Assembly: GCA_023659985.1 (NCBI GenBank)
Contig: JAGXOH010000001.1
Coordinates: 1 to 52,238 of the forward strand
Direction: 5' to 3'
DNA: 52,238 bases
Origin: Candidatus Falkowbacteria bacterium LH_S3
GTDB taxonomy: Bacteria; Patescibacteriota; Patescibacteriia; Patescibacteriales; JAGXOH01
A program made the position numbers and the translations under genes. Positions 8,411-41,810 of the stretch are shown here, piece after piece. A model generated the notes under the pieces. That model saw only the letters and a list, made by a program, of their open reading frames with translations, did no database searches and had not been told where the DNA came from. Numbering within the stretch: position 1 is the stretch's first letter; each line of letters starts with the position of its first letter.

Positions 8411-8530
8411 ATTTATTTTGATTATTATATGCTTACTTAGTTTCCAACATTTAACGCAACAGTGTTATTACTAAAAGATTAACATTTTTCCTTATAAAAC
8501 ACAATTTCAATACGACTATTGTCATACAAT

Positions 8531-8870
8531 AAAATCCTAATGACAAAGCTCAAATGTCAAATGAATATCAAATGACTAAATGTCAAATTAAATATCAAAA
8601 CTTAAAGCTTAAAACTACAACTTAAAACTCAAAACTTCTTACTTCTTACTTCTTACTTTTTATTTGGCATTAGGATTTTGGATTTTGGATTTCATCTAAT
8701 TTTTGGTTTTGAGTTTTGCGTTTCAACCATATTTTAATTTGGTTTTAAGTTTTGACTTTGTTTTGACTTTTGACTTTTGACTTTTGAGTTTCAACTATAT
8801 TTCATTTGGCATTAGGATTTTGGATTTCATTTGTCATTAGGATTTGGTCATTGGTCATTAATGTCAAATG
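8531..8870. repeat. Family-A array arranged as a long imperfect palindrome (inverted half 8531-8640, TCTTACT x3 centre, forward half 8664-8870)
   Basis: Read directly. The block is bracketed by a 17-bp direct repeat, ATTTCAATACGACTATT, at 8504-8520 and 8992-9008. Confidence 0.85.
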
Positions 8871-9173
8871 TTGTAACCTTGTAGATTATAAATTAATGGT
8901 AATCAGAGAATAAATCCAAAAATTAATTAAAATCCATCGGTATGACATTTTTAAATTGCTCAGAGGTATGAAATTTCTAAATTGCCTTGACATTTCAATA
9001 CGACTATTTCTTGTATTGATTTGACTTTAAATCCGAAAAGAAACAAAATATAAATAATTGGTCACGAATTCAACTCATCAGTAAAGAAAAACAAAACAAT
9101 ACCATAAATACACAAAATAACTCATCAATCTACTAACTGGCAGAGACATAAATTTAGCTTTAAAACATTAACT

Positions 9174-15293: not shown

Positions 15294-17342
15294 TTAACTC
15301 TCGGCTTTAGCTTGTTGCATTCTGTTTTTTAATTCCGCAAACGGCTCATGACCTTCATGGTTCTTCGTGAGATTGAAAGCAGGATTTTGTGGATCAACTC
15401 CATTTTCTTTACATGCCTTACAAAAATATGTTTCAAAATCGAAATTTTCGTCTAAAACTGAAAGGCGAAAGTTTGTTGCTGTAATGTATACTTCTTGCAA
15501 AATTTTAGCACGAATATTCCCAAATGACTCACTCCCAAATGAATTATAGTGTAGTGACGGTTCTTCCCCAAATCCAACCCCTACCATATTTTCGCCTTTT
15601 TTGCTTTTCACCTCTGCGGTGAACTGAGGTGTTCCTGAATCATCAAAAGCTTTGGTGTTATTGTTATAAAGATTTTCTATAATTTGTAAAGCCTGTTCTT
15701 CTTCTTCCGAATTAAAGTAAATAACCATTTTATCAAGACGATTAAATTCCTTGGCACTTCCACGCAAAGGGATTTTCATTTGACTATTCAGACCCTCATT
15801 TTTAAACTCTTCCACTGCTTGTTCGAAAACCTGTCCTACATATTCCGGATTTAAATTTAAGTAAAATCTGCCAATTCCTGCTTGCTCGTATATTCCCTTG
15901 TTTGTACTACAAGAAAACCAATGTCCAGGAGCCTTCGGCATAAGGTTCTCTCCTTCTTTTTCCTTTTTTTCTAAATTGTCTTTTGCCAATTTTACTGACT
16001 TGAAATACTCTTTTTCTAATTTTTCGACCTCTGAATTGTTCTCCTGATATTTTAAGTTGTCAATATTTCTATTGTAAAAATCGCGATAAAAAAGTCCAAC
16101 CAAACCTTTCCCTTTATATAATTCATCTTCGATCTCCTGCTGATGGTTTTCAACATATTCGTAAAAGTCCTCTATCGCTTGTTTCTTTTCTGGAGAATCT
16201 TCTATGGTTTCTATCTGCTCTTCTCTTGACTGTTTGGATTCTTCAGATTGTAAAATTGTACCATTTGTAGAATTTAAATCTTCTATGGAAAGATTACCAT
16301 CTTTTAATTCTATTTTTAAATGATCGCCGGAAACAGTTTTCGGAAGCTTAAACCCTAATGGATCTTGACGACCGAGGATAAATGAATCGTTTTCTCTGAT
16401 ACTCTTATATCCAGTAGTGGGATTCTTTTGATCAAAAGTTGCAGGATCAACAAGTAGATAGTCGGCCTTCCATGACTTGTATTCCTGAACATTAATAATT
16501 TTCAAGTGTTTTTCCGAGAGATGGACATCAATCGGTATTTCTGTATCTTCAACTTCTTTTTTCTCTCCCTTAAGTTCAAAACGCTCTGGCTGAATTTCTT
16601 TTTCCGGTCCCCCTTGTCCCCTTATTTCATCTAGCGCTAAACCTGATTTTTCTTTAATTTGATTGATTGCGCTTGCAAATTCTGAACCTAATTGCGAATC
16701 AGGAAATACTTGGCGCCAAGTATCTAAAAATTCTTGTTGCATTTGTATAACTCTTCTTGCCTCGTCTGAAGTTAGTTCTTGATTAGCAGCAGCAAATACA
16801 TTTTTTTTTACATAATCTCGTTGAGATGAGGAAATACTCCTATGATCTATTTTGTTTGTAATGTCAGTTAAATTTTCAATAATGCGCGTTTTATTTTCAT
16901 CAGAGGATACTGCACCAAATTCTTCATAAACTGGGGCTAAGACATCCACAACGCCTTGAGCTGCCTCCCGCTTATATTGTAATTGTTTCTCTTGTACTGC
17001 TTGTTCATGTTGTTCTTTTGTCCGTCCTTCTTGATAAACAACTCCAATTTGCTCATCAATGATCTGCCCTAGATCTTTTTGAACATCCTCGATAGTCGGA
17101 TATTTTTTGCGCAATTCGGTCAAGGTGCCTTGTACATCTATTGAACGCAATTCTTCTTGATTTGGCAAATACCCCTTCTCCATCACAGTTAAAATTTTTA
17201 TACCTCTCTTGTTTGTTTTTATCTGTTCAACTGCTTCAGCAAAAGGATTGGACTCTTCAGGCGATTTTTGAACTTCCGATTTATTTTGTTCTGGAGATTC
17301 AGGCGATGGCGAAGTATTAAATTGTTCCATTTTTTCTTTCAT
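15294..17342 (-). CDS. FHA-domain protein with large uncharacterised N- and C-terminal domains (C-terminal domain possibly HopA1/LanKC-lyase-like)
   Basis: FHA signature SFILGRQDPLGFKLPKTVSGDHLKIELKDGNLSIEDLNSTNGTIL. The C-terminal ~270 aa carry GRFYLNLNPEY...MKIPLRG...RLDKMVIYF. Confidence 0.75.
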   Translation of the reverse strand: MKEKMEQFNTSPSPESPEQNKSEVQKSPEESNPFAEAVEQIKTNKRGIKILTVMEKGYLPNQEELRSIDVQGTLTELRKKYPTIEDVQKDLGQIIDEQIGVVYQEGRTKEQHEQAVQEKQLQYKREAAQGVVDVLAPVYEEFGAVSSDENKTRIIENLTDITNKIDHRSISSSQRDYVKKNVFAAANQELTSDEARRVIQMQQEFLDTWRQVFPDSQLGSEFASAINQIKEKSGLALDEIRGQGGPEKEIQPERFELKGEKKEVEDTEIPIDVHLSEKHLKIINVQEYKSWKADYLLVDPATFDQKNPTTGYKSIRENDSFILGRQDPLGFKLPKTVSGDHLKIELKDGNLSIEDLNSTNGTILQSEESKQSREEQIETIEDSPEKKQAIEDFYEYVENHQQEIEDELYKGKGLVGLFYRDFYNRNIDNLKYQENNSEVEKLEKEYFKSVKLAKDNLEKKEKEGENLMPKAPGHWFSCSTNKGIYEQAGIGRFYLNLNPEYVGQVFEQAVEEFKNEGLNSQMKIPLRGSAKEFNRLDKMVIYFNSEEEEQALQIIENLYNNNTKAFDDSGTPQFTAEVKSKKGENMVGVGFGEEPSLHYNSFGSESFGNIRAKILQEVYITATNFRLSVLDENFDFETYFCKACKENGVDPQNPAFNLTKNHEGHEPFAELKNRMQQAKAES

Positions 17343-17395: not shown

Positions 17396-17632
17396 CTAAA
17401 ATCTGACTAAAAGGATGCCTGTTAAATCATTAAAAGTCGATATTAAAAAGAAGATTTCGGTCAGATTTTCAAACACTAACTTAAACTCTATTTCAGTCAG
17501 ATAGTTAAATAATTTGACACGAACCCATCTTAAACGCTCATCTAAAGCGTTATTTGGTAGTTTTGTACACATATCTGCGATTCTCTCATATTTTTTCCAA
17601 AACCGACAAATGTGTATGCACATTACCTTCAA
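17396..17632 (-). pseudogene. DDE transposase C-terminal remnant
   Basis: Contains EGNVHTHLSVLEKI (shifted frame) and ..LPNNALDERLRWVRVKLFNYL.., paralogous to 14158-14332 and 46600-46725. The 17429-17520 segment is repeated at 33075-33166. Confidence 0.45.
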
Positions 17633-17755
17633 TTTTTACTATGTTGGTCTGGTATAATTTAAGTTAGCCACATGCACTGAATTTTTTTGACACAAAATGT
17701 GAGTGAACTTGTTCTTTAATAGGCATTCCTTGTTTTCGGGTATTTTATTGCTTCT

Positions 17756-17786
17756 AAACACGACATACTATAAGTATGTCGTGTTT
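17756..17786. promoter_or_regulatory. Perfect 14-bp-arm palindrome AAACACGACATACT-ATA-AGTATGTCGTGTTT upstream of dprA; carries the TACTATAAGTA core
   Basis: Read directly. The same core recurs at 33195-33209, and the variant TACTATAGTA/TACTATAGTT at 51560-51569 and 39895-39904. Confidence 0.5.
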
Positions 17787-22119: not shown

Positions 22120-22120
22120 A

Positions 22121-22228
22121 AATACTTAATAAAATCCAAATGACAAAGCCCAAATACTGAATAAAATCCTAATGACAAAGTCCTAATGTCAAATGAATAT
22201 CAAATGACTAAATGACTAAATGTCAAAA
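22121..22228. repeat. Family-A array, inverted orientation
   Basis: AAAATCCAAATGACAAAGCCCAAATACTGAATAAAATCCTAATGACAAAG...AAATGTCAAAATATTGTAACC, immediately upstream of the start of the minus-strand gene. Confidence 0.8.
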
Positions 22229-22327
22229 TATTGTAACCTTATAAGTTATAAATTATATGCCATGGGTTTCTGGCTTAATATCTTCTTTATGCGTTCAGCG
22301 TTGAGCAGTCAAGCTTTGCTTAACTAA

Positions 22328-22428
22328 TTTGGCATTAGGATTTTGGATTTCATTTGGCATTAGGATTTTGGATTTCATTTGGCATTAGGATTTTGGATTT
22401 CATTTAAATTTTGGTTTTACGTTTTAAG
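22328..22428. repeat. Family-A array, forward orientation; three perfect tandem 25-bp units TGGCATTAGGATTTTGGATTTCATT (22330-22404)
   Basis: Counted base by base. The array is interrupted at 22428/22429 by the IS and resumes at 23740. Confidence 0.9.
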
Positions 22429-23739
22429 GGTTGTTTATCAAATGAAATGAGAACGCCTCTCTTTCGACTTTAAATTGATTTTGAATGATAATTGTTTAAT
22501 CATTTTGGATTTTAGTTCTTTTTCAAAATAAATAGATAATTGTTCTTTTTTAAGATTCCATTCGGCCAAGATAAAGTAATTGATGTATGATTTTGGAAGA
22601 AATACTTTTTCATTTAGGATGTCAATGAATGGTTTGCCTGTTTGTTCTTTGTTTTCTTTAACCTGTCTGATGAAATAGATTTTAGGAATAAAATATTTCT
22701 TGCTCTTGGCTTCTGTTTTTGGCGCTTGATAATGGAGGTATCTCTGAGATGACAGATTAAACCATTCTAATTTTTCATCAACCTCTTCTACTGATTTGAA
22801 ATCAATTCTATTCCAGAATTTTCTAGCAAAGACAGAGTTATTTCCTTCAATTGATGCCTGTGAGAATGGTTTTCTTGGAACAGCAAAGATGGGAACGACT
22901 TGCTTTTGTAAAAGATAACTCATTGCTTTAGAAATATTCCTCTTACCAGAAGCGCTACCAATCATTGTAAGAGCGTTATCTACTTTTACAAAATCAGGCT
23001 TTTCAAATTTCTTAAAAAAGCGTTCGAACTGTTTAATAAAATTCTCTGCTGTTTGTCCCTTAATCCGCTTAAAATACCTTAATTTAGGCTCTTTCTTAAA
23101 AGAAAAGGTGATAAAATTGAGAGGTTCTGTCCTACCAGTAATGTATTTTTTGCCAATGAAATCCATTTCTAAAACTCTACCACCCAATAAAGTATAAATA
23201 GTATGTTCTGGATAACAGAGATAGCGAGCTGCTCCTTTGTTTCTGCCTTTCTTTCGTGTTGTTGAAAGCCCCAAGTCAGAAAGTATGCGGCCAATGGTAA
23301 TGAGGGGTGGTGCAGGACTGTCTGGATATTTCTCTCTCCACTTATCAACAATAGCTGAAGCTCCGGTGTAGAATTCCAAAGGTTCATCCTCTAAAGCTCG
23401 GTGGATTTCCTTAATTCTGTGCTCAGTAGTTTTGTCCCACTTCCGTCTTTTGCCTTGTGGCCAGCCTCTATCGTCTTTAGTGAAATCCTGATTGGGTGAT
23501 TTAGTCCAAACCATAACGAAGTTTGTAGAAACTCTTTCTTTCCTTATGATATCACGTTTAGATAATTTTTTTTAAAGAATAAATCATTGACCTTTCTTCT
23601 TAATTGAAATAATCTTTCTTTGTTCATAGAATTTAGTAAATTAGAGTTAAATTAGTCGACTACTTTAGTTTACTAATACTCTGAACAATTATCAAAGAGA
23701 GGCGTTCTCATTTCATTTGATAAACAACCTTTTAAGTTT
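22429..23739 (-). mobile_element. Intact insertion sequence, 1311 bp, with 36-bp perfect terminal inverted repeats and a 7-bp target-site duplication TTTTAAG
   Basis: IRL 22429-22464 GGTTGTTTATCAAATGAAATGAGAACGCCTCTCTTT equals the reverse complement of IRR 23704-23739. TTTTAAG is found at 22422-22428 and 23740-23746. Confidence 0.9.
22438..23514 (-). CDS. DDE (rve-like) transposase of the IS
   Basis: Candidate triad in LEMDFIGK, FVKVDNALT and SIEGNNSVFARKFW, with a basic N-terminus. The stop codon lies inside IRL. Confidence 0.75.
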   Translation of the reverse strand: MVWTKSPNQDFTKDDRGWPQGKRRKWDKTTEHRIKEIHRALEDEPLEFYTGASAIVDKWREKYPDSPAPPLITIGRILSDLGLSTTRKKGRNKGAARYLCYPEHTIYTLLGGRVLEMDFIGKKYITGRTEPLNFITFSFKKEPKLRYFKRIKGQTAENFIKQFERFFKKFEKPDFVKVDNALTMIGSASGKRNISKAMSYLLQKQVVPIFAVPRKPFSQASIEGNNSVFARKFWNRIDFKSVEEVDEKLEWFNLSSQRYLHYQAPKTEAKSKKYFIPKIYFIRQVKENKEQTGKPFIDILNEKVFLPKSYINYFILAEWNLKKEQLSIYFEKELKSKMIKQLSFKINLKSKERRSHFI

Positions 23740-23900
23740 TAAGTTTTGAGTTTCAACCATATTTCATTTGGCATTAGGATTTTGGATTTCATTTAATTTA
23801 ATTTTTGGTTTTGAACTTTGACTTTTGGTTTTGCGTTTTGAACTTTGAGTTTTGCGTTTCAATCATATTTTTGGATTTTAGATTTCATTTAAATTAATGT
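23740..23900. repeat. Family-A array, continuation after the IS, forward orientation
   Basis: TTTTAAGTTTTAAGTTTTGAGTTTCAACCATATTTCATTTGGCATTAGGATTTTGGATTTCATT... Confidence 0.85.
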
Positions 23901-31070: not shown

Positions 31071-31847
31071 ATGCTTTCAAAATTTATTCAACAATTGCGA
31101 AAAAAGAATAATCTGACGCAGAATTTTTTGGCGTCCAAAATCGGCGTGTCTCGTCCGACCTATATGCAAATTGAACAAGGTAAACGGGACTTAACTATTA
31201 CTGAGGCAGAAAAACTGGCTTTTATTTTTGGTATTTCGTTTGAGGATTTTAGGCGTGCCAAAGATTCTTCCATTACTGCTGAAATTAAGAAGGAAAAAAT
31301 GAAATCAAAGGCAAAGAAACAAGAAATAAGAATCAGTGTGCCGCAAAAAAATCTTGAAAAATTTAAAGAAGTTTTGCTTTATATTTTATCAAAAGTTGGT
31401 GGCAAATCTAATGTTGGCGAAGCTGTGATTTATAAACTGTTTTACTTTATTGACTTTGATTTTTACGAAAAATTTGAGGAGCAATTAGTTGGCGCGACTT
31501 ACATTAAAAATCATTATGGTCCTACTCCTGTTGAATTTAAAACCGTTGTTGACGATATGATCCAAGGTGGTGAAGTTGTAAAAGTTAAAGAAAAATATTT
31601 TAATTATCCGCAAAGAAGATATTTAGCGGTCAGAAGGCCAAATCTTGATGTTTTATCCGGTCGCGAAATAGAACATATTGATGATGTTTTGGCGCGGCTT
31701 TCTGACAAAAACGCTAAAGAGATGGAAAATTATTCCCACGAGGATATTCCTTGGAAAACGGCGGAAGATGGCAAACCACTTTCTTATGAGAGTGTTTTTT
31801 ATCGTGACGAACATTACTCTGTAAGAAACTATGAAGACAGATTATAG
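31071..31847 (+). CDS. HTH(XRE)-Panacea (DUF4065/SocA-like) antitoxin
   Basis: N-terminal LTQNFLASKIGVSRPTYMQIEQGKRDLT. C-terminal KFKEVLLYILSKVGG...IYKLFYFIDFDFYEKFEEQLVGATYIKNHYGPTP is the typical Panacea core. Confidence 0.8.
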   Translation: MLSKFIQQLRKKNNLTQNFLASKIGVSRPTYMQIEQGKRDLTITEAEKLAFIFGISFEDFRRAKDSSITAEIKKEKMKSKAKKQEIRISVPQKNLEKFKEVLLYILSKVGGKSNVGEAVIYKLFYFIDFDFYEKFEEQLVGATYIKNHYGPTPVEFKTVVDDMIQGGEVVKVKEKYFNYPQRRYLAVRRPNLDVLSGREIEHIDDVLARLSDKNAKEMENYSHEDIPWKTAEDGKPLSYESVFYRDEHYSVRNYEDRL

Positions 31848-32172
31848 TGAAATGCCGGAGTTTTCCAAAGAATTTAACCGGTTTTCAAAAAAATATAAAT
31901 CATTGTCAGACGACTTGGAAGAGTTTAAACGCGTTGTTGATGTCGCGCCAATGGGAAATAGCAAGCATTTTAATGTCATTACGCGGAATGAACAATGTGC
32001 TGTTGTCAAAGCACGTTTGTTTTGTCGTTATTTAAAAGGATCGTCACTCCGAATTATTTACGCTTTTCATTATCAAAGTTATAAAATTGATTTTATTGAG
32101 ATATATTTTAAAGGTAAGAAAGAAAATGAAAATCGTGAAAGAATTCAAGCTTATTTGAAAAATTTTTCTTAA
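31831..32172 (+). CDS. RelE/ParE-superfamily-like toxin
   Basis: Overlaps the antitoxin stop. Contains KKYKSLSDDLEEF...VVKARLFCRYLKGSSLRIIYAF...IDFIEIYFKGKKENE, a RelE-like beta-core pattern. Confidence 0.6.
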   Translation: MKTDYSEMPEFSKEFNRFSKKYKSLSDDLEEFKRVVDVAPMGNSKHFNVITRNEQCAVVKARLFCRYLKGSSLRIIYAFHYQSYKIDFIEIYFKGKKENENRERIQAYLKNFS

Positions 32173-32669: not shown

Positions 32670-33026
32670 TTGAAGTATATGACAATACAAATGGACGACT
32701 CACACATTGTAAGTATTACACAAATTAAAGAATTTTTAAAGCTCAATAACAGTATTCAGTTTAAATCTGTTTCCAAGAAAGAAAGGAATCAGTGGCTGGA
32801 ACAGGTTATAATTCGGCTAAGATATTTTAAGCTAAGAAAGAAAGACAAAACCCTTGTAAAAAAATACATAATGCGAATAACTGGATTATCTGACTCTCAA
32901 TTAACTAGACTAATTGCCAGAAAAAAGAAGTTTGGTAAAATCTGGTTTAAATCAACCAGAAGACATTGTTTTCCAAAAAAATATACCCCAAAAGATGTAG
33001 CTCGCTTAATTGAAAAGAACAATTGA
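32670..33026 (+). pseudogene. N-terminal fragment of a transposase/integrase (HTH region only)
   Basis: ..HIVSITQIKEFLKLNN..FKSVSKKERNQWLEQVI..ITGLSDSQLTRLIARKKKFG..RRHCFPKKYTPKDV, with no catalytic domain following. A paralogous 43-aa fragment lies at 41226-41357. Confidence 0.55.
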
Positions 33027-33074: not shown

Positions 33075-33166
33075 ATTAAAAGTCGATATTAAAAAAGAAG
33101 ATTTCGGTCAGATCTTCAAAACTAACTTAAACCCTATTTCAGTTAGATAGTTAAATTGCTTGACAC
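33075..33166. repeat. ~92-bp repeat shared with 17429-17520 (transposase-tail remnant ending in TTGACAC)
   Basis: ATTAAAAGTCGATATTAAAAA(A)GAAGATTTCGGTCAGAT(T/C)TTCAAA..ACTAACTTAAAC(T/C)CTATTTCAGT(C/T)AGATAGTTAAAT, aligned by eye at roughly 90 percent identity. Confidence 0.8.
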
Positions 33167-33194
33167 AAGTATGGACTTTCTATTTTCTTTCTAT

Positions 33195-33209
33195 TATACT
33201 ATAAGTATA
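33195..33209. promoter_or_regulatory. Perfect palindrome TATACT-ATA-AGTATA 29 bp upstream of the LexA-fusion ATG; candidate operator
   Basis: Read directly. It shares the 13-mer ATACTATAAGTAT with the dprA-upstream palindrome. Confidence 0.45.
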
Positions 33210-33237
33210 AAATTAATAAAAAGTAAAGTCAAATATT

Positions 33238-36200
33238 ATGTTAACAAAAAGACAAAAACAAGTTTTAGACTTTATATCCTCGTATCATAAGAAAAAAGGA
33301 TATTCCCCCTCTTTGGAAGAAATACGCAAAAAATTTAAACTTGCTTCTGTTTCAACTGCCCATTTTCATGTAAAAAAATTGCAAGATTTGGGATTTATAG
33401 GAAAGCAAGACAACAGACCGAGATCAATTGATGTTTATGAAAGTGAAAAAATGGTTAATATTCCATTGCTTGGTTTAATTGCGGCCGGGCAACCTATTGA
33501 ACCAATACAAAGCCAAAACAGGGAAACAATTGCCGTTCCAAAAAGCAAAATATCTCACAGTGGTGAATTTTATGTTTTAAAAGTAGTTGGTGACAGTATG
33601 ATTGATGAAAATATAAATGACGGTGATTTGGTTTTGGTCAAACAACAAGATACTGCTGAAAATGGACAAAAAGTAGTCGCCCTTGTAGATAACTACGAAG
33701 CTACCTTAAAAAAATTTTATAAGGAAAAAAATTATGTAAGATTGCAACCAGCAAATAAAACAATTGAACCGATTATTATAAAGAGGGATAAAGAGCTAAC
33801 AATACAAGGTATTGTTATTGATGTAATAAGAAATGAGGAAGAAATACAAGCAGAAAAACTTTTGGAAAATAAAGAAATAAAAAGGAATAAAACGCTTCCT
33901 TTGAATAAAATTATTTTGGGAGATGCTGTTGAGGAATTAAAAAAACTGCCAAATGAAAGTTGTGATGTAATTATTATTGATCCTCCTTACAATATCGGAA
34001 AGGATTTCAATAATAATTTAGATAAACGAGAATTAAAAGAATACGTAATTTGGTGCAAAGAATGGATAAATGAATCAATTCGTGTAATGAAGCCAACTGG
34101 CACGATGTTTATTTATGGATTTAGTGAAATACTTGCTTATCTTTCCGTAGAAATTCCAATCAATAAACGCTGGCTGATTTGGCATTACACAAACAAAAAT
34201 GTTGCCTCATTAAATTTTTGGCAAAGAAGCCATGAAGCAATAATCTGTGCTTGGAAAGATAAACCTGTTTTTAATAAAGATGAAGTCAGGGAGCCATACA
34301 CCGAAGGATTTTTAAATGGAGCAGCCGGAAAAGTTAGGAAAGGAACAGCTGGAAGATTTAGCAGTAATGGGAAAGAAACTGTTTACAATGCACATGCGGA
34401 CGGGGCATTACCCCGCGATGTTATAAAAATCCCAGCTTTAGCTGGTGGAGCTGGTATGAATGAAAGATGGTTTATATGCAAAACTTGTAAAAATCAAGTT
34501 TTTGAACCAAGAGAATTAAAAAATCATACTGATCATGAAATAATTAAACACCCCACGCAAAAACCTCTTAAATTATCGCGAAAATTAGTAATGTCCGCTA
34601 CTCCCAAAAAAGACGGGGTTGTATTGGTACCCTTTGTTGGTACGGGCTCTGAATGTGTAGCGGCAAAAGAATTAGGGCAATCTTACATCGGCTTTGAAAT
34701 AAATCCCGATTATATTAAACTTGCCAAAAAATATTTGGAAAATCAACTTGTAAGCAAATCAACAAAAGAAAACGAATATATTTTTTCGAGTGAATATGTA
34801 AGTGAAGATCAAATCAAAGAGCTAACCTCTCGCTTGATTGAATTTAGAGAAAACAATTTATCGCGATACGCACTTGATATAAAAGATACGATTTATAGAA
34901 AAGAAATTTTAGATTCTGCAATTTTACAAAATGTATTTCTTTATATTGTTAAACAGAACGCGATAGAGGTAACAAATCAAAATGTCCAAGAAATTTTAGA
35001 GCAATTGCAGATTGATGGTGTAGGACTAGCTACGAGAGAAAAACAGGAGCTAGAAAAGATTTTGAATGTCTATAATTTAGAGGAGACAAAAGAAGACATT
35101 TTAGGATTTATTTATCAAAGTATTCGTCCACAAACTGATCGAAAAGAAGCAGGTCAATATTATACGCCGAACAAGGTTGTTGATTTTATTATTGAAAATA
35201 CCGGCATTGATATAGAAAAAGACAAAAATCTAACAATACTTGATCCGGCTTGTGGCTCTGGCCAATTTCTCTTGCGTGCCTATGACAAACTTTTAGCGCA
35301 ATATAAAAAACTTAGTACGTCAGATACAGAGGCTCATAAAAAAATTATAGAAAAACACCTTTACGGCATGGACATTGACCCCATTGCTTGCGCACTAACA
35401 AAGGCGAATCTTTACTTACGCAATCCAGATATCAAAGAGTTAAACTTTAACATTCATCAAGTAGATTTCCTCAAAAAGGATTATAATTTGATTGAACCTG
35501 ATCCTTTCCATAAAATCTATAATCAAATTGATTTTGTAATTGGTAATCCACCATGGGGAGCAAAACTTTCAAAGGAACAAAAGAGATATTTCGAAAAATA
35601 CTACAAGATTGGTAAGGTTGGTCTCAACACCTTTACACTATTTATTGAAAGAGCTTTAGATTTTCTGGAAAATAAGGGAAAGTTAGGATTTCTCATCCCT
35701 GAAGCCTACCTGAAAATCAAGGTTCATCAGCATTCTAGACTTCAGCTACTTCAAAATGGAAACATTCAAATGTTGGCTACAGGTGGGGAGATATTTAAAA
35801 AAGTATATGCTCCTTCACTTATCCTAATTTTTGAGAAAAATGAAAAAGATAAAAAAGATAATGATGTAATTATTAAAGAGAATGTATTCAACGGACACAT
35901 TAAAGAAACCAAGCTCGCTCAATCTTTATTTCAATCAACAGCAGATAATATTTTCAATATTAATTTTTCCGATGATACTTCGCAGATTCTTCAATACATT
36001 GATTCACAGGATAATAAATTTCTGAAAGACAATACTCTATTTGTTCTTGGAATAGTAACTGGAAATAATAAAAAATATCTTGTAAACAAACCTCTTACTA
36101 AAGAGCACAAGCCAATTATTGTCGGGAAAGATTTGAAAAAATACAAAATAAATTTTAGTGGTAATTACTTTGTTTACGATAAAGAAGAGCTTCAACAGGT

Positions 36201-36627
36201 TGCCCCAAAGGAATACTATGAAATACCAGAGAAATTGATTTATAAATTTATTGGAAAAAACTTGATTTTTGCATATGACAACGAACATCGGTTTTTTTTG
36301 AATAATACAAATGCGATAGAGCCCAAAATCCTCGGATTAGACATCAAGTATATTTTAGGAATACTTAACTCAAAGCTAATCCAATTTTATTATTCCAAAA
36401 TGTTTTTTACTATCCGTGTTTTGCGTGGTAACTTGGAAAGACTACCTATACTCAACGCTAGTAAAGAGAAGCAAAAAAGAATCATCGATCTTGTCAATGC
36501 AATAGAAAAAGATAATGGCAGTGAGTATGAAAATTTAGTTAGAAAGATTGATGAGGAAATTTTCAATCTTTACAAAATAGGGTCAGAGTGGAAAAATTAT
36601 ATTGAAGCAGAATTATCGAGACGATAA
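33238..36627 (+). CDS. LexA (wHTH + S24 peptidase) fused to a beta-class N4/N6 DNA methyltransferase and a gamma-class Eco57I/TaqI-like N6-adenine methyltransferase with TaqI_C-like specificity domain
   Basis: Residues 1-200 are LexA: PLLGLIAAGQPI (Ala83-Gly84), GDSM (Ser120), ATLKKF (Lys158). Residues ~225-500 carry IIIDPPYNIG, HPTQKPLKL and VPFVGTGSE. Residues ~635-1129 carry GQYYTP, LDPACGSGQF, VIGNPPWG and LGIVTGNNKKYL. There is no stop codon anywhere in the frame. Confidence 0.85.
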   Translation: MLTKRQKQVLDFISSYHKKKGYSPSLEEIRKKFKLASVSTAHFHVKKLQDLGFIGKQDNRPRSIDVYESEKMVNIPLLGLIAAGQPIEPIQSQNRETIAVPKSKISHSGEFYVLKVVGDSMIDENINDGDLVLVKQQDTAENGQKVVALVDNYEATLKKFYKEKNYVRLQPANKTIEPIIIKRDKELTIQGIVIDVIRNEEEIQAEKLLENKEIKRNKTLPLNKIILGDAVEELKKLPNESCDVIIIDPPYNIGKDFNNNLDKRELKEYVIWCKEWINESIRVMKPTGTMFIYGFSEILAYLSVEIPINKRWLIWHYTNKNVASLNFWQRSHEAIICAWKDKPVFNKDEVREPYTEGFLNGAAGKVRKGTAGRFSSNGKETVYNAHADGALPRDVIKIPALAGGAGMNERWFICKTCKNQVFEPRELKNHTDHEIIKHPTQKPLKLSRKLVMSATPKKDGVVLVPFVGTGSECVAAKELGQSYIGFEINPDYIKLAKKYLENQLVSKSTKENEYIFSSEYVSEDQIKELTSRLIEFRENNLSRYALDIKDTIYRKEILDSAILQNVFLYIVKQNAIEVTNQNVQEILEQLQIDGVGLATREKQELEKILNVYNLEETKEDILGFIYQSIRPQTDRKEAGQYYTPNKVVDFIIENTGIDIEKDKNLTILDPACGSGQFLLRAYDKLLAQYKKLSTSDTEAHKKIIEKHLYGMDIDPIACALTKANLYLRNPDIKELNFNIHQVDFLKKDYNLIEPDPFHKIYNQIDFVIGNPPWGAKLSKEQKRYFEKYYKIGKVGLNTFTLFIERALDFLENKGKLGFLIPEAYLKIKVHQHSRLQLLQNGNIQMLATGGEIFKKVYAPSLILIFEKNEKDKKDNDVIIKENVFNGHIKETKLAQSLFQSTADNIFNINFSDDTSQILQYIDSQDNKFLKDNTLFVLGIVTGNNKKYLVNKPLTKEHKPIIVGKDLKKYKINFSGNYFVYDKEELQQVAPKEYYEIPEKLIYKFIGKNLIFAYDNEHRFFLNNTNAIEPKILGLDIKYILGILNSKLIQFYYSKMFFTIRVLRGNLERLPILNASKEKQKRIIDLVNAIEKDNGSEYENLVRKIDEEIFNLYKIGSEWKNYIEAELSRR

Positions 36628-36801
36628 TTTTTTAATCTTCTCAAAAACTTCATTAGAAGTTATTTCATATTTTTTAAAATCAGCTATATTTTCTGTCTTG
36701 ATGTGCATTTGTCCTTCGTAACCTTGACCCTGCAACAGTACAGTTATTGCGCGCTTCGTTTTATATGTGTATACTAAGGTTATAAAGAGTTATAAAAAAT
36801 T

Positions 36802-38004
36802 ATGAATCAGGAATTACACCCAGAAACGATTAAATATATCAAGGCGGCGGATTTAAAACATCGCAAAAAATTGGGTCAGTATTTTACGTCACGCACACTC
36901 AGAGAAATTCTGTTCAGCAAACTACCTAAATTGAAAAAGCCTAAAATTCTCGATCCGGCAATTGGTACCGGGGAATTTTTAATAACTGCTAAAAAATATT
37001 ATCCGAATAGTCGAATTTATGGATGGGAAATTGACCCTGCTCTAGTAAATATCTCAAAACAAGTTGCCCCATATGCCCATATTGAGTGCGTTGATTCTCT
37101 TAAAAAACATGAGTATGGCAAATTTGATTTTATAGTAGGAAATCCTCCTTACTTCGAGTTCAAACCAGATCCAGAGACACGCACAAAATATTCAGAAATT
37201 CTCAACGGAAGAGTAAATATATATGGAATTTTCATCTACCAGGCAATACAACTTTTGAAAGATGGCGGGTACCTCGCCTTTGTAATCCCTCCCTCTATGA
37301 ATAATGGTGCTTATTTTTCGAAATTACGGAACTTTATAGTTGCTAATTGTAATATTGAATTTCTCTCAATTCAGCAAGTCCCTACTCTTTTTAAAGATGC
37401 TCTTCAGAGTGTTATGTTGCTTGTGCTTAAAAAAGCTCCAAATGTTGGAAGTTATATATTCAAAAAGAACGGTATTCTCATATTTAGTGAAGAAAGAGAA
37501 TATCTTGAAAATGTGTTTAAAAATAGCGTAACGCTCAGTGATCTTGGATACAAAGTTCGAACGGGAAAATTAGTATGGAACCAGAACAAAGATCGCTTAA
37601 CAAACACCCACAAAGGAAATACCGCCCTTATCTGGAGTCACAATATCACAAAAGGGAATATTGAATTAGGAAATCATGGGAGTAAATCACAATTTGTAAA
37701 GACAAATTTTTATGAGCAAGGACCAGTAATTGTAACGAATAGAATCATTGGTCAACCTCATAAAGGAAGTTTAAGAGCCGCTGTTGTTCCAAAAAATATG
37801 AAATTTGTAGCCGAAAATCATATCAATGTAATTTATCCTCCTGATAAGCAAACCCGCATGTGTTTTACCAATAAAAAAGTTTCTATTGAAAGCTTGGTTG
37901 AACAACTAAACTCTCCGACGAACTCCAAGATTTTGTTCCGAATAACTGGCAACACACAAATATCTAAAAACGAACTTGAAAAACTATTTCCCATCAAGGT
38001 ATAG
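36802..38004 (+). CDS. Gamma-class N6-adenine DNA methyltransferase (TaqI/Eco57I-like)
   Basis: LGQYFTSRTL, ILDPAIGTGEFL, GWEIDP, FIVGNPPYFEF, and a C-terminal TRD-like half. Confidence 0.85.
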   Translation: MNQELHPETIKYIKAADLKHRKKLGQYFTSRTLREILFSKLPKLKKPKILDPAIGTGEFLITAKKYYPNSRIYGWEIDPALVNISKQVAPYAHIECVDSLKKHEYGKFDFIVGNPPYFEFKPDPETRTKYSEILNGRVNIYGIFIYQAIQLLKDGGYLAFVIPPSMNNGAYFSKLRNFIVANCNIEFLSIQQVPTLFKDALQSVMLLVLKKAPNVGSYIFKKNGILIFSEEREYLENVFKNSVTLSDLGYKVRTGKLVWNQNKDRLTNTHKGNTALIWSHNITKGNIELGNHGSKSQFVKTNFYEQGPVIVTNRIIGQPHKGSLRAAVVPKNMKFVAENHINVIYPPDKQTRMCFTNKKVSIESLVEQLNSPTNSKILFRITGNTQISKNELEKLFPIKV

Positions 38005-38011
38005 CTCCAAC

Positions 38012-38938
38012 TCAAAGCAGAAATACTCTCTCGCAAAACGCGCTTAAACCAATACCATTTGTAAAACTTGCTTGTAGTCTAACAAGGGGGGTTTTTTCTG
38101 CCAAAATATGGTAGCTTTTATTTTTTATTTTTTCAGCAACTAACTCCCCCTCAATTAAACCCCTCATTGTTTCATTCCAATATAACCAGGGGGTATCTTT
38201 CTCCACGAGAACACTTAGTAGTGGTTTAGTTGATTTAATATCAAATATTTCTTCTAAGAATACTAATTTTTTCTTTTTTGGTAAGGCATTAAACAATTTA
38301 ACGCTTTTGTCTACTGCTAATTCCTGCACGGAGGTTCCATATCTTTTACCGATCTTTTGTATGGCAGGAAAGCAATACTTTGCATTCTTAATTTCATCCT
38401 GACTTTTTGTTGATATCTTAGCTAATTCACCTCCAGCTTTAGAAAAATCTTGTCTAATGTTTGCCCACATCTCTTTTAATTCTTTATCAATATTCAAACC
38501 CAAGAATTGTTTTAATTTTTCATAACCAAAATTTTTCTGAGTTCCAAGTCCCTGTCTTGTTGATTTCAAAGATACCCCTATTACAAAACCGGACTCAAAA
38601 GTTAAATCTAGATCTGAAATTGTTTCTTCTTCTTGCCATCTTCGTCCGATCCAATTAATAGTTTTTATTTTTCCATGAGTAGGTATAACATTAGAGTTTA
38701 ATTTTTCTATTAGAGCCGGCATTAAAATGCTGACCCTTTTATATTGTTCTTCGGTACGTTTTTCGCTATTTGGAAAATTAGAAATTATACTTTCCAGTTC
38801 CTGTTTTATTTTTTCTAGCTTATCTTTTTTTAGTTTATAAACATCGCTCAAGCCTATGGCTACAAGAACTTCAAACAAATCGGCTTTTGAGCGACTAGAC
38901 TTTCTCTTACTATCTTCAACTGTAATAATTTTGTACAT
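38012..38938 (-). CDS. Putative type II restriction endonuclease
   Basis: Convergent with the methyltransferase across an 8-bp gap. Candidate D-Xn-(S)xK element SDLDLTFESGFVIGVSLKS. No other family was recognised by eye. The start at M13 (38938) abuts the radC stop. Confidence 0.5.
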   Translation of the reverse strand: MYKIITVEDSKRKSSRSKADLFEVLVAIGLSDVYKLKKDKLEKIKQELESIISNFPNSEKRTEEQYKRVSILMPALIEKLNSNVIPTHGKIKTINWIGRRWQEEETISDLDLTFESGFVIGVSLKSTRQGLGTQKNFGYEKLKQFLGLNIDKELKEMWANIRQDFSKAGGELAKISTKSQDEIKNAKYCFPAIQKIGKRYGTSVQELAVDKSVKLFNALPKKKKLVFLEEIFDIKSTKPLLSVLVEKDTPWLYWNETMRGLIEGELVAEKIKNKSYHILAEKTPLVRLQASFTNGIGLSAFCERVFLL

Positions 38939-38942
38939 AATA

Positions 38943-39632
38943 TTAAAATAAATCTGGATTTTGATTCTGGACACTTAAGAAGTTGCTTCTGGTGATAATG
39001 ATATGATCAATAACCTTAATTCCCAAAACATTACCGCTATCTATGAGTTTTTTGGTAATCGCTAAATCTTCTTCTGATGGTTCTGGATCGCCTGACGGAT
39101 GATTGTGTACAAATATTACTGAGGCGGCTTTGCTCTTGATTGCTTCAAAAAAGACCTCTCTTGGATGAACCAGGCTGGAGTCGAGGATCCCGATTGAAAT
39201 TTCGTTTACTGGGCAATTACGAGAATTTAAAGCAATCACATAAAAATGTTCTTTGCTGTAATCTTTAACCCTACCTCGCATAAACTTGAAAACCCTTTCC
39301 GGATTTGTAAGTTCTTTGCTCTTATAAGAAGGCGTTTGAGTGGAAATTCTCCGGCTGATTTCAAAAACGGCTTTTATTTGTGCTACCTTTGTCTGCCCAA
39401 TCCCTTTAATAGATAATAATTCCTCAATGTTTGCTTCTGATAATTTTTGCAAACTTCCAAAATGGCTTAATAATTTTTGAGATGTTACGGTAACCGATTC
39501 GCCGGCAATGCCACGCCCTAAAATAAGTTGTAATAACTCTTGAGTCGAAAGTGCTTGTTCGCCAAATTCAGTCAATCGCTCTCGGGGGCGCTCTTCTTTT
39601 GGTAAATCATGAAGGGTGAATGATTTTGACAT
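38943..39632 (-). CDS. radC: RadC-like JAB/MPN domain protein
   Basis: HhH-like N-terminus (LSIKGIGQTKVAQI) and the JAMM motif HNHPSGDPEPSEED. Confidence 0.9.
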   Translation of the reverse strand: MSKSFTLHDLPKEERPRERLTEFGEQALSTQELLQLILGRGIAGESVTVTSQKLLSHFGSLQKLSEANIEELLSIKGIGQTKVAQIKAVFEISRRISTQTPSYKSKELTNPERVFKFMRGRVKDYSKEHFYVIALNSRNCPVNEISIGILDSSLVHPREVFFEAIKSKAASVIFVHNHPSGDPEPSEEDLAITKKLIDSGNVLGIKVIDHIIITRSNFLSVQNQNPDLF

Positions 39633-39634
39633 AG

Positions 39635-39850
39635 TTAGTTTAGATTCATTAGCTTATCTAAAGGTATTTTCAAAGCCCTAGCAATTTTCTCAATATTTTC
39701 TATCGTGATATTTTTTTCTGCACGCTCAATCATTCCAACATAAGTGCGATGAACACCTGCTCGTGTTGCAAGCTGTTCCTGAGAAAGTCCTTGCTTTATT
39801 CGTTCTTCTCGGACTTTCTTGCCAAATTTGATAAGGATTTCTCTTTTCAT
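39635..39850 (-). CDS. XRE-family HTH regulator, controller (C) protein-like
   Basis: GLSQEQLATRAGVHRTYVGMIERAEKNITIENIEKIARAL. It is 71 aa and the first gene of the XRE-radC-REase operon. Confidence 0.8.
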   Translation of the reverse strand: MKREILIKFGKKVREERIKQGLSQEQLATRAGVHRTYVGMIERAEKNITIENIEKIARALKIPLDKLMNLN

Positions 39851-39876
39851 ATTTGATAATTTTAGTATATCTTCTT

Positions 39877-39907
39877 GCTAATTGTAGTGCTACATACTAT
39901 AGTTAGC
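39877..39907. promoter_or_regulatory. Candidate C-box/operator: nested inverted repeats GCTAATT..AGTTAGC and TGTAG..CTACA, with the TACTATAGTT core
   Basis: GCTAATTGTAGTGCTACATACTATAGTTAGC lies 27-57 bp upstream of the XRE ATG. A TATACT -10-like box lies at 39864-39869 on the minus strand. Confidence 0.4.
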
Positions 39908-39937
39908 ATATAGAATTAACAAATTTGGGGATTTTCT

Positions 39938-40178
39938 TTGTATCGCCCGCGTTGGGCGTGGCGGGACAAGTGCGACTAAATATGAATAATAAATTTCCGC
40001 CGAAAAAAAATCGTGCGAAGCCTAAGCAGGCGGGCCCATAGCAAAACCTATGGCTTGCTATGGGGCAAGCAAAAAGAATTTTTGTTTACCCCGTAGTCAA
40101 ATGCGAAACATTTGTACTTCAGGGGCCGCCTGCCGAAGTGAAGCCTCGCCGCCCTGCTCGTTCAGAGCCGAGTCCTGC
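39938..40178. ncRNA. GC-rich, helix-dense non-coding segment (candidate structured RNA or foreign insertion); strand unknown
   Basis: Hand counts give about 50 percent GC at 40021-40080 and about 68 percent at 40121-40180, against a ~30 percent background. Helices: CCCATAGCAA/TTGCTATGGG (40035-44 / 40055-64), GCAGGCGG/CCGCCTGC (40026-33 / 40126-33), CAAATG-CGAAA-CATTTG (40098-114), CCCC/GGGG (40089-92 / 40122-25). Confidence 0.35.
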
Positions 40179-40198
40179 AAAAAAGTTTTCTTTTCCTT

Positions 40199-40327
40199 TT
40201 AGAAGAAAAAATCGGGCGCGCGCAAATTAAAAAATGCGAAGAAAACTTTTTTCCAATTTACAAAATATTCCCATGTTTTAATTGAACTTTTTAATGTTGC
40301 TATTAAATTTGCAAAATCTTTTTCCAT
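40199..40327 (-). pseudogene. N-terminal remnant (~30 aa) of a DpnII/MboI-family restriction endonuclease
   Basis: MEKDFANLIATLKSSIKTWEYFVNWKKVF resembles the conserved DpnII-family N-terminus (..TW.YFVDF.KV..). The frame then runs into unrelated GC-rich sequence and stops. Confidence 0.5.
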
Positions 40328-40331
40328 ACTT

Positions 40332-41165
40332 TTAATAATTAGTTACCAATACTTCTGTAATTTTCCCTCGCTTAGAAGCATCGGAGTTAATGGCGCGACC
40401 CGCCTGTACTTTTGTAATATTAACGCCTGTAATTTCAGAGTATATTTTATTAATAAATGAAGTATCGGAGTTTGAGAGTATAACGAAACAACCACATCTA
40501 TGTAGTTGTGCAAATGTATCCCTCAATTCTATCTGTTCTTTATCCAAAAAGGCTTCACTTGTGTAAGAAGTAAATGAAGCTGTTTTACTTACTGGATAAT
40601 ATGGCGGATCAAAATAAACAAAATCTCCTTTTTTAGCTTTTTTCAAAATTTCTCTGTAATCCTGTTTTTTTATCTCAACATTCTGTAATGATATTGATGC
40701 TTTTCTAAGATTAACTTCATCACAAATAAGAGGGTTTGTATATTTTCCATACGGCACATTAAAACCGCCTTTGTTATTTACACGGTACATACCATTAAAA
40801 CATGTTCTATTCAAATAAAACGAGATACAGTGTCTATATCAGAAAGGCTTTCCGGATTTTGCGCGCGAATTTCTAAGAAATATTCTTTATCTAATTTATA
40901 TTTTTTTAAGAGATTTTATAAGTTCATCAACATCATTTTTTATGACATTATACGTAATAACAAGTTCCCCATTTAGATCAGAGAATTCTGCTTTTTCAGG
41001 AAGTAAATCAAAGAAGAGAACAGCACCACCAACAAATGGCTCAAAATATTTGTTTGATTTTGAATCAAAATTAGCAGGAGGATATAGATTCAAAAGTCGA
41101 AATTGTTTGAGGACTTGTCTTTTTCCGCCAACCCATTTTACAAACGGCTTCGGAGTATATTCCAA
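40332..41165 (-). pseudogene. Dam-type (D12 class) N6-adenine DNA methyltransferase, disrupted by at least two frameshifts
   Basis: The N-terminal part KPFVKWVGGKRQ..FEPFVGGAVLFF, the middle part DKEYFLEIRAQNPESLSDIDTVSRFI, and the C-terminal part LNRTCFNGMYRVN...VYFDPPYYP are in three different frames. Confidence 0.75.
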
Positions 41166-41445: not shown

Positions 41446-41604
41446 TCATCTTGCATTGGAAAAGACTTTCGGTTTTTCTTCAAGAATCTTTGTGATATCA
41501 TCAAATAAATTATCTTTATTTGCGATATGGAAAAGCCTCCGAGCATAAATTGTACTTATGCCGAATGTATCTGCTATTTTTAAAATTGTTTGACTTTGTG
41601 TCAT
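41446..41604 (-). CDS. Possible 52-aa HTH-like ORF (below the track cutoff)
   Basis: MTQSQTILKIADTFGISTIYARRLFHIANK... It overlaps the subterminal repeats of the IS remnant, so it may be spurious. Confidence 0.25.
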   Translation of the reverse strand: MTQSQTILKIADTFGISTIYARRLFHIANKDNLFDDITKILEEKPKVFSNAR

Positions 41605-41718: not shown

Positions 41719-41810
41719 TGGCGGAGAGGGTGGGATTTGAACCCACGGTCCCACTGAAACGAGACGCCGCATTTCGAGTGCGGTGCATTCAGCCACTCTG
41801 CCACCTCTCC
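41719..41810 (-). tRNA. tRNA-Ser (anticodon CGA), CCA encoded
   Basis: The reverse complement GGAGAGGTGGCAGAGTGGCTGAATGCACCGCA-CTCGAAA-TGCGG, a long variable arm, and GGGTTCAAATCCCACCCTCTCCGCCA. Confidence 0.93.

Follow-up and report, generated by a model that had tools for sequence, protein, structure and literature searches.

A LexA repressor fused to two DNA methyltransferases in Candidatus Falkowbacteria, and its relatives in Patescibacteria

We analysed a stretch of 52,238 nucleotides from Candidatus Falkowbacteria bacterium LH_S3 (contig JAGXOH010000001.1, positions 1 to 52,238; below, the window). It contains a gene encoding an 1129-residue protein with a LexA repressor at its N-terminus and two DNA methyltransferases (MTases) behind it. 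The gene is a single uninterrupted open reading frame (ORF), and Pfam, together with NCBIfam for the LexA part, bears out the architecture proposed in a first-pass annotation made from the sequence alone: LexA is complete and is followed first by a beta-class MTase, then by a gamma-class one that carries a TaqI_C domain. The features of the gene are as follows.

33238..36627, plus strand: chimeric LexA-betaMTase-gammaMTase gene, 1129 aa, ATG start, one uninterrupted ORF (Pfam and NCBIfam)
33241..33423, plus strand: LexA winged-helix DNA-binding domain, residues 2-62 (PF01726 LexA_DNA_bind, 3.6e-15)
33463..33819, plus strand: Peptidase_S24 domain, residues 76-194, with Ser120 at 33595-33597 and Lys158 at 33709-33711 (Pfam and alignment)
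33484..33489, plus strand: predicted self-cleavage site Ala83-Gly84 (aligned to E. coli Ala84-Gly85)
33964..34731, plus strand: beta-class N6/N4 MTase module, residues 243-498 (PF01555 N6_N4_Mtase, 3e-35)
34738..36624, plus strand: segment from a LexA-gammaMTase parent of the P0001/P0006 type, with a helical region, the gamma MTase (35092-35946) and TaqI_C (36109-36450)

The fusion is genuine and its LexA part is complete. Residues 2-199 match positions 4-201 of the 203 positions of the NCBIfam LexA equivalog TIGR00498 (185.9 bits, cutoff 110.95), and in a phmmer comparison with PDB the first 200 residues align over the full length with the LexA of T. maritima (3k2z, 1.6e-36) and of E. coli (7b5g and 1jhh). 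The alignment places A83-G84 on Ala84-Gly85 of E. coli, S120 on Ser119 and K158 on Lys156; the cleavage site and the Ser/Lys dyad are thus where they had been claimed, and they are conserved across the family. In the second half of the protein, the N6_Mtase/Eco57I region covers residues 619-903 (PF02384, 3.3e-33; PF07669, 4.8e-20; PF12950, 2.3e-26) and TaqI_C residues 958-1071; all domain matches are far over threshold. The translation also has the motif order described earlier for both MTases, with DPPY ahead of FxGxG in the first, and DPACGSG followed by NPPW in the second. The identical 1129-aa protein is encoded, with the same neighbours, on the independently assembled Logan contig SRR14170916_261, and it is present in NCBI too.

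Comparison with relatives identifies the gene as a recombinant of a LexA-betaMTase (residues 1-500) and an 826-aa LexA-gammaMTase (residues 501-1129). The 510-aa LexA-betaMTase P0122, which represents the window protein in its 90% cluster, has 93% amino acid identity to window residues 1-501 and then a stop; at the nucleotide level, positions 33167-34742 are 86.6% identical to a P0122-type locus (L113). From residue 501 on, the window protein is 65-82% identical to residues 217-825 of P0001-P0008, and positions 34738-36725 are 73% identical to the P0006 locus (L002). The peptide LENQLVS directly follows the LexA C-terminus in P0001 and follows the beta MTase in the window; the stretch between the two methylases, initially taken for a helical linker, belongs natively to the gamma-MTase parent, being its N-terminal helical region. 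Two features mark the joining and what was lost.

34738..34742, plus strand: recombination junction at codon 501, GAAAA microhomology (the L113 homology ends at 34742, the L002 homology begins at 34738)
36613..36726, minus strand: remnant of R231, last 38 codons (87% identity to the end of this 231-aa Type II enzyme)

At the junction the window has ...TATTTGGAAAATCAAC..., against ...ATATAGAAAAAGC... and ...CCTAGAAAATCAGC... in the two parents. The L113 parent continues for 9 codons past the junction to its stop, and the join is in-frame. The minus-strand fragment noticed in the first pass at 36613 does exist, and is what remains of R231; it is without the region of the catalytic residues D102, E115 and K117. 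No remnants of the nucleases that partner the beta MTase (R205 and R229) were found in the window by tblastn. The earlier statement that no intact partner nuclease adjoins the gene holds for the cognate enzymes, which are gone, but a candidate nuclease is encoded nearby at 38012-38938, in a different cassette. An in-frame illegitimate recombination joined two LexA-MTase genes, deleting the second LexA and the first nuclease, and a later deletion truncated the second nuclease, R231. The outcome is an orphan double methylase behind a LexA-type promoter.

In a search for relatives that covered 5.8 billion proteins, 116 of the top 120 matches listed, to which the protein counts below refer, are LexA fusions. 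By regular expression, 111 of the 116 have the AAGxP motif, 115 have GxSM and every one has the lysine motif; those missed cleavage motifs that were inspected still show Ala-Gly. The conservation of the cleavage and catalytic residues had been named as a point on which the proposal could fail; A83, G84, S120 and K158 are invariant in an alignment of 20 sequences (A1). The recognition helix SVSTAHFHV is likewise common to the family. About 100 of the relatives are proteins of some 621 aa in which LexA is joined to a PspGI-like N4/N6 MTase. P0001-P0009 are LexA-gammaMTase-TaqI_C proteins of about 825 aa, 68-79% identical to the C-terminal 56-60% of the window protein, and other gamma-class fusions have 623, 759 and 890 aa. 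One listed protein, P0010 (1176 aa, 31% identity), has the same triple architecture as the window protein.

LexA homologs were also collected from one genome per species; the query was the 20-sequence alignment, which had been built from fused sequences and biases the scan towards fusions. Among the resulting 80 loci, 21 carry a fused LexA of 471-627 aa, all on low-GC contigs labelled Patescibacteria/Candidate Phyla Radiation (CPR), Omnitrophica or unclassified. The other 59 homologs come from many phyla and have 167-215 aa. The C-terminal partner at the checked fused loci is a beta N6_N4, a C5 cytosine or a D12 (Dam-type) MTase according to Pfam, and over the whole family the partners comprise beta, C5, D12, gamma and PspGI-like MTases. 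Two viral contigs from IMG/VR carry LexA fusions as well. In sum, the LexA-MTase fusions make up over 110 protein clusters and occupy 21 loci in genomes, nearly all from Patescibacteria. No second LexA-type gene was found within any fetched locus. In a neighbour-joining tree of the LexA domains, which has no support values, the fused domains form one cluster with the partner types intermixed, and most of the free-standing Patescibacteria and viral LexAs fall outside it; this separation is only suggestive.

No description of a LexA-methyltransferase architecture was found in a full-text literature search. The first-pass remark that no such fusion had been described is thus correct for the searched literature, but hundreds of them are present in public databases, labelled 'transcriptional repressor LexA', 'SOS regulatory protein LexA' or with the name of a methylase. 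The family is apparently large and undescribed in Patescibacteria.

Both the LexA and the MTase parts have been functionally constrained. Compared with the unfused relative at L113, the ratio of nonsynonymous to synonymous substitution rates (dN/dS) of the window gene is 0.039 overall; by part, it is 0.087 in the DNA-binding domain, 0.032 in S24, 0.028 in the beta MTase and 0.244 in the linker. The LexA cleavage and catalytic residues are under strong purifying selection.

The genomic surroundings show that the LexA fusions are M genes of Type II restriction-modification (R-M) systems. At 16 of the 21 fused genome loci the 3' end of the fusion meets a convergent ORF of 170-380 aa, separated by 0-8 bp or overlapping by no more than 9 bp; at the other five the following gene is co-directional. 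In a pooled Pfam scan of 24 neighbours, about 11 match restriction enzyme families (RE_Bsp6I three times, MvaI_BcnI twice, and RE_AlwI, RE_TaqI, RE_NgoFVII_C, MutH, RE_BsaWI and HNH), and two are second MTases. The P0122 gene is overlapped in three metagenomes by a following gene for a TaqI-family nuclease (RE_TaqI). The P0006 gene is followed by the 231-aa ORF R231 and a 71-aa helix-turn-helix (HTH) gene. R231 matches the PADLOC model REase_II (2.2e-41), has the invariant residues D102, E115 and K117, and gives an AlphaFold model (pLDDT 88.8) whose best PDB matches are NhoI and other PD-(D/E)XK nucleases; as judged from this model, it is a Type II restriction endonuclease of the PD-(D/E)XK fold.

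A free-standing 196-aa LexA that belongs to the clade of the fused domains is encoded at L020 (6001-7380), where it is followed after 19 nt by a gene for a DpnI-family methylation-dependent nuclease. The locus looks like a LexA-controlled Type IIM system without a methylase, which suggests that this LexA clade is a regulatory module of R-M systems and not a mere appendage of MTases.

The P0006 LexA-MTase cassette adjoins an operon with a SMODS cyclase (CBASS-like; L002/L003 5693-7918, L003 2423-5157). In L003 this entire block is found beside recA, on the far side of a tRNA gene and of a large serine recombinase, and in L002 it lies beside a HinfI R-M system; these different surroundings show that the defence island is mobile. 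The fusion-bearing host L003 has recA. A 98-aa GIY-YIG gene is divergent from several LexA-MTase genes (L012 5582-5939, L113 878-1174, L114 187-483), and the one in L012 is accompanied by a separate copy of the direct-repeat box described below.

The region upstream of the window gene contains the following features.

33075..33166, plus strand: copy of a dispersed repeat of about 90 bp (family D11), ending in TTGACAC; the other copy is at 17410-17520
33172..33177, plus strand: -35-like hexamer TGGACT, with a 17-nt spacer to TATACT (9/12 consensus positions)
33176..33194, plus strand: candidate LexA operator, direct repeat CTTTCTAT-TTTC-TTTCTAT filling the promoter spacer (units 33177-33183 and 33188-33194)
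33195..33209, no strand: palindrome TATACTATAAGTATA (TATACT-ATA-AGTATA) of the first-pass annotation; its left arm is the -10 box, its right arm an opposing -10-like hexamer

The direct repeat TTTCTAT-N4-TTTCTAT between the -35 and -10 boxes is the likely operator. The upstream regions of 24 fused genes align around a direct repeat TTTC(G/T)(G/A)T-N4-TTTC(G/T)(G/A)T, which lies downstream of a -35-like hexamer and ends at, or 1-2 bases ahead of, a -10 box TATAAT or TATACT. The loose pattern TTCKR-N6-TTCKR occurs in 18 of these 24 regions, where 0.095 would be expected and 1000 shuffles gave a maximum of 2. In the 52-kb window, positions 33176-33194 are the top match of the corresponding position weight matrix (PWM), with 18.5 bits, and they stay on top, at 17.4 bits, for a matrix built without the window. 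L113 and L007 have exactly the -35/-10 arrangement of the window. Free-standing lexA genes in Saccharibacteria (L081) and on viral contigs (L089 and L091) are preceded by the same direct repeat, and the recognition helices of fused and free-standing LexA are alike; in the viral fusions the repeat is inverted and lies just past the -10 box. A direct-repeat LexA box, GTTC-N7-GTTC, is established for Alphaproteobacteria (PMC8565304).

The PWM also recovers (A/G)TTCGC-N6-TTCGC repeats at recA promoters of metagenome contigs with a GC content of 0.56-0.61 (L162, L163, L176, L188, L195, L196 and others). These repeats have the GTTC-N7-GTTC form of the alphaproteobacterial box, and they served as an unplanned positive control for the matrix. 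The rest of the window has no strong box apart from a 15-bit site inside an ORF. The second match, at 41466-41484, lies within small ORFs beside tRNA-Ser and is probably due to chance.

The first-pass annotation had taken the palindrome for the operator. It is indeed located at 33195-33209, but as an operator we reject it: it coincides with the -10 box and an opposing -10-like hexamer, it shows no enrichment in the window (6 matches with three or fewer mismatches, 3.8 expected), the recA promoter of L003 lacks it, and of 25 promoters of the family only about 5 have it. It is conserved in L113, and similar palindromes occur only in L002, L015, L019 and L068. The broader claim, that the gene stands behind a LexA-type operator, keeps its substance, as a conserved candidate operator is present, with the site moved to the direct repeat at 33176-33194.

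Several other elements were observed around these promoters. A conserved AAGTCAA(T) lies 5-20 nt ahead of the start codon in the window (33204-33232, minus strand) and in L007, L016, L018, L002 and L113. On the opposite strand it reads TTGACT and is followed at 17-18 nt by a -10-like hexamer, in the window the right arm of the palindrome, giving a predicted minus-strand promoter that faces the LexA-MTase promoter; this could serve antisense transcription, or the element could be an inverted operator half-site, a full inverted copy being present in L006. In most LexA-MTase promoters the -35 position is occupied or immediately preceded by a DnaA-box-like element, TGTGGATAA(C), which in the complementary strand is TTATCCACA (L008-L013, L016, L017, L022, L037, L048, L049, L113). 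In the window it is replaced by the 90-bp repeat element: homology to L113, which has TGTGGATAA at this place, starts only at 33167, and the native upstream DNA is gone. The two copies of the repeat are 88% identical over a 49-nt core. Just upstream of it is a start-poor 118-aa ORF (32670-33026) with no family match; this may be the end of a mobile element. A perfect hairpin with a 14-bp stem, AAACACGACATACT-ATA-AGTATGTCGTGTTT (17751-17781), is found upstream of dprA; its core (17764) resembles the palindrome at 33195-33209.

Taken together, these data lead us to favour, with appreciable reservations, the reading that the window gene, an orphaned LexA-double-methylase chimera, is autorepressed through the direct repeat and derepressed by RecA-triggered cleavage. 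Autorepression with such derepression is plausible. The LexA moiety would dimerise through S24 and bind TTTCTAT-N4-TTTCTAT in the spacer of its own promoter, so that the methylase would repress its own synthesis; a naive host would see a burst of methylase on entry of the system, and then a low steady level, a logic shared with C-proteins and with the N-terminal HTH of M.SsoII. RecA filaments on single-stranded DNA would induce self-cleavage at Ala83-Gly84, detaching the 83-residue DNA-binding domain, and the promoter would then be derepressed and more S24-methylase made. Since cleavage at this site removes the DNA-binding domain only, S24 would stay on the methylases; the release of free methylase envisaged in the first pass does not follow. 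In an intact system, protection would be raised when the chromosome is cut or damaged, and the window copy would keep only the methylation output.

Several observations weigh against this reading. The repeat was derived from the family's own promoters, and its assignment to LexA is drawn from its position and from its resemblance to known boxes. No strong PWM site was found at the recA promoters of the eight lowest-GC loci fetched, a small sample that is Patescibacteria-like but of uncertain taxonomy, and a link to a wider SOS regulon is therefore no more than possible. At L020, a LexA of the same clade shares an operon with a DpnI-type nuclease, so that induction would not always favour protection. 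Finally, the window copy, whose upstream DNA is replaced at 33166 and both of whose nucleases are lost, may be on its way to decay.

Of the other explanations, the one that survives best, although we consider it unlikely, is that the fusion is the main or only SOS repressor of the organism, with the methylase as a passenger and the operator as a general SOS box of Patescibacteria. Nearly all of the closest Patescibacteria LexA homologs in the genome scan are indeed fused, NCBI names them LexA, and free-standing lexA genes share both the direct repeat and a similar recognition helix; but the scan was biased to fusions by its query. An identical cassette occurs in different contexts, beside a tRNA gene and a serine recombinase, the fusions are usually paired with nucleases, and no site was found at the eight low-GC recA promoters; the fused LexA domains also cluster apart from most free-standing ones, in the tree without support values.

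A simpler role, in which LexA would do no more than dimerise, bind DNA and regulate its own gene in the manner of a C-protein, its self-cleavage being lost or without function, also seems improbable to us. The operator and promoter logic alone would account for the fusion, and there are MTases, M.SsoII and similar, that have a regulatory N-terminal HTH without any cleavage. Dimerisation alone, however, would not keep the dyad together with the scissile bond, whereas practically every one of the about 116 fusions, across five MTase classes, has retained Ala-Gly, Ser and Lys, and the dN/dS of S24 is as low as 0.032.

Even less credit can be given to the opposite effect, by which cleavage would inactivate or destabilise the methylase, and after damage or phage infection the DNA would be less protected and the nuclease free to kill either the cell or the invader, as in abortive infection. 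The new C-terminus, ...LLGLIAA, would resemble an ssrA tag, both fragments of E. coli LexA are degraded after cleavage (by ClpXP and Lon), and the LexA at L020 drives the operon of a DpnI-type nuclease. Against this, derepression would simultaneously raise the synthesis of the methylase, and in the window no nuclease is left to act.

The type IIS-like pair suggested in the first pass, in which each of the fused methylases modifies one strand of an asymmetric site, has almost nothing in its favour beyond two MTase domains of different classes in one chain and the single other triple-domain protein among the matches listed, P0010: close relatives of each half act alone, with their own LexA and nuclease (P0122 with a TaqI-like enzyme, P0006 with R231), and the halves, stemming from two independent LexA-MTase genes of separate R-M systems, are joined by microhomology 9 codons short of the parent's stop. 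An artefact of sequencing or assembly, be it an overlooked stop, a frameshift or a chimeric contig, may be dismissed: the exact chimera was met in no other organism, but two assemblies contain the identical protein, 5-7 bp of junction microhomology is too short to mislead an assembler, and the LexA-MTase join itself is conserved in hundreds of proteins.

The favoured reading, an autorepressed and damage-inducible methylase, combines features of known kinds, namely R-M autoregulation by a DNA-binding domain fused to M and SOS control of mobile-element genes, and is not categorically new. With the LexA of E. coli and T. maritima (3k2z) the window protein shares the full-length equivalog match, the winged helix-turn-helix, the Ala-Gly site, the Ser/Lys dyad and a candidate operator in its own promoter, whose repeat form is that of the alphaproteobacterial GTTC-N7-GTTC box. 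It differs in being an 1129-aa fusion to methyltransferases instead of a free-standing protein of about 200 aa, and in belonging to mobile R-M cassettes beside nucleases. M.SsoII, M.Ecl18kI, M.EcoRII and M.MspI are methyltransferases with an N-terminal regulatory HTH. The likeness is a DNA-binding domain at the N-terminus of M that is predicted to repress the M promoter; however, in the window this domain is a whole LexA with a self-cleaving protease and a possible DNA-damage input, its fold and operator type differ, and the HTHs are non-homologous.

The C-protein systems (C.PvuII, C.AhdI, C.Esp1396I) are similar in that a dedicated transcription factor times the expression of M and R. Unlike the LexA-MTases, C-proteins do not sense RecA; they are separate HTH proteins of small size, and their main target is the C/R operon. 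The P0006-type relatives and the cassette downstream of the window gene each carry a 71-aa C-protein. Lambda CI and SetR of SXT are cleavable S24 repressors that tie the expression of mobile elements to the host SOS response; unlike in the fusions, these repressors are not joined to the enzymes that they control. M.FokI is the fused double methyltransferase of a type IIS system and likewise has two MTase domains in one chain, but the domains of the window protein come from two independent systems joined by illegitimate recombination and have no type IIS nuclease. In EcoKI restriction alleviation, HsdR is proteolysed by ClpXP after DNA damage. This would be a functional analogue, as damage shifts the balance from restriction to protection, although the mechanism, proteolysis of a nuclease subunit in a Type I system, is different.

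R-M systems need methylation ahead of restriction, and our understanding of how they detect and correct self-damage is still partial. A methylase bearing the DNA-damage sensor of the cell would, if the favoured reading is true, be a direct and testable link between SOS and R-M homeostasis. To our knowledge, the lineages involved are largely devoid of CRISPR and rely on R-M systems. We tentatively suggest, as a possibility somewhat short of an even chance, that LexA-MTase fusions form a widespread undescribed layer of control of the Type II R-M systems of Patescibacteria (CPR) and their mobile elements, in which RecA-triggered self-cleavage of the methylase subunit couples DNA damage, self-restriction and phage attack included, to the balance of methylation and restriction. 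LexA would then be a portable regulatory cassette swapped among all major MTase classes, and the window chimera a snapshot of this shuffling. The annotation of hundreds of fusions only as 'transcriptional repressor LexA' hides methyltransferases and may have inflated conclusions about LexA and SOS in Patescibacteria. The window copy itself is a degenerate orphaned chimera, and its worth lies in being an entry point to the fusion family.

Downstream of the gene there is a separate R-M cassette.

36741..40255, both strands: separate mobile R-M cassette, joined by deletion (90% nucleotide identity to L116-L124)
36802-38004, plus strand: 400-aa gamma MTase of the cassette
38012-38938, minus strand: 308-aa ORF, candidate nuclease of the cassette
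38943-39632, minus strand: RadC of the cassette
39635-39850, minus strand: C-protein of the cassette, 71 aa (PADLOC Control_protein, 8.6e-23)

Cassettes of this type, with serine recombinases at their flanks, are present on dozens of metagenome contigs. In other genomes the cassette MTase gene has, divergent from it, a gene for a free-standing LexA/S24 repressor of 220 aa with a Cys-Gly site, which the window copy has lost. The 308-aa ORF has no Pfam, NCBIfam or PADLOC match, and its single-sequence structure model (pLDDT 36) is unusable; it is a candidate nuclease solely by its conserved position in the cassette. The presence of RadC between the C-protein and the putative nuclease is unusual.

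Further downstream, a Dam-type (D12) methyltransferase is split into ORFs of 89 and 160 aa (40332-41165, minus strand) and is probably a pseudogene. It is separated by small HTH ORFs from tRNA-Ser (CGA) at 41719-41810, which borders the R-M island. The locus is thus a reshuffled R-M island bordered by tRNA-Ser, in which methylases survive and the nucleases of the LexA-MTases are gone. At the left edge of the island (31071-32172), a 258-aa gene of the HTH-SocA/Panacea antitoxin-like type overlaps a 113-aa ORF without family match; this is likely to be a toxin-antitoxin pair.

In other parts of the window, AT-rich families of short repeats (TTTTGGATTTCATTT... and GGTTTTGACTTTTGA...) were observed in the intergenic regions 13-260, 1406-1686, 8514-8882, 22120-22448 and 23757-23871. 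A 682-aa protein encoded on the minus strand (15294-17342) has both an FHA domain and a domain of the HopA1 effector family; to find the two paired is unusual in a bacterium with a small genome.

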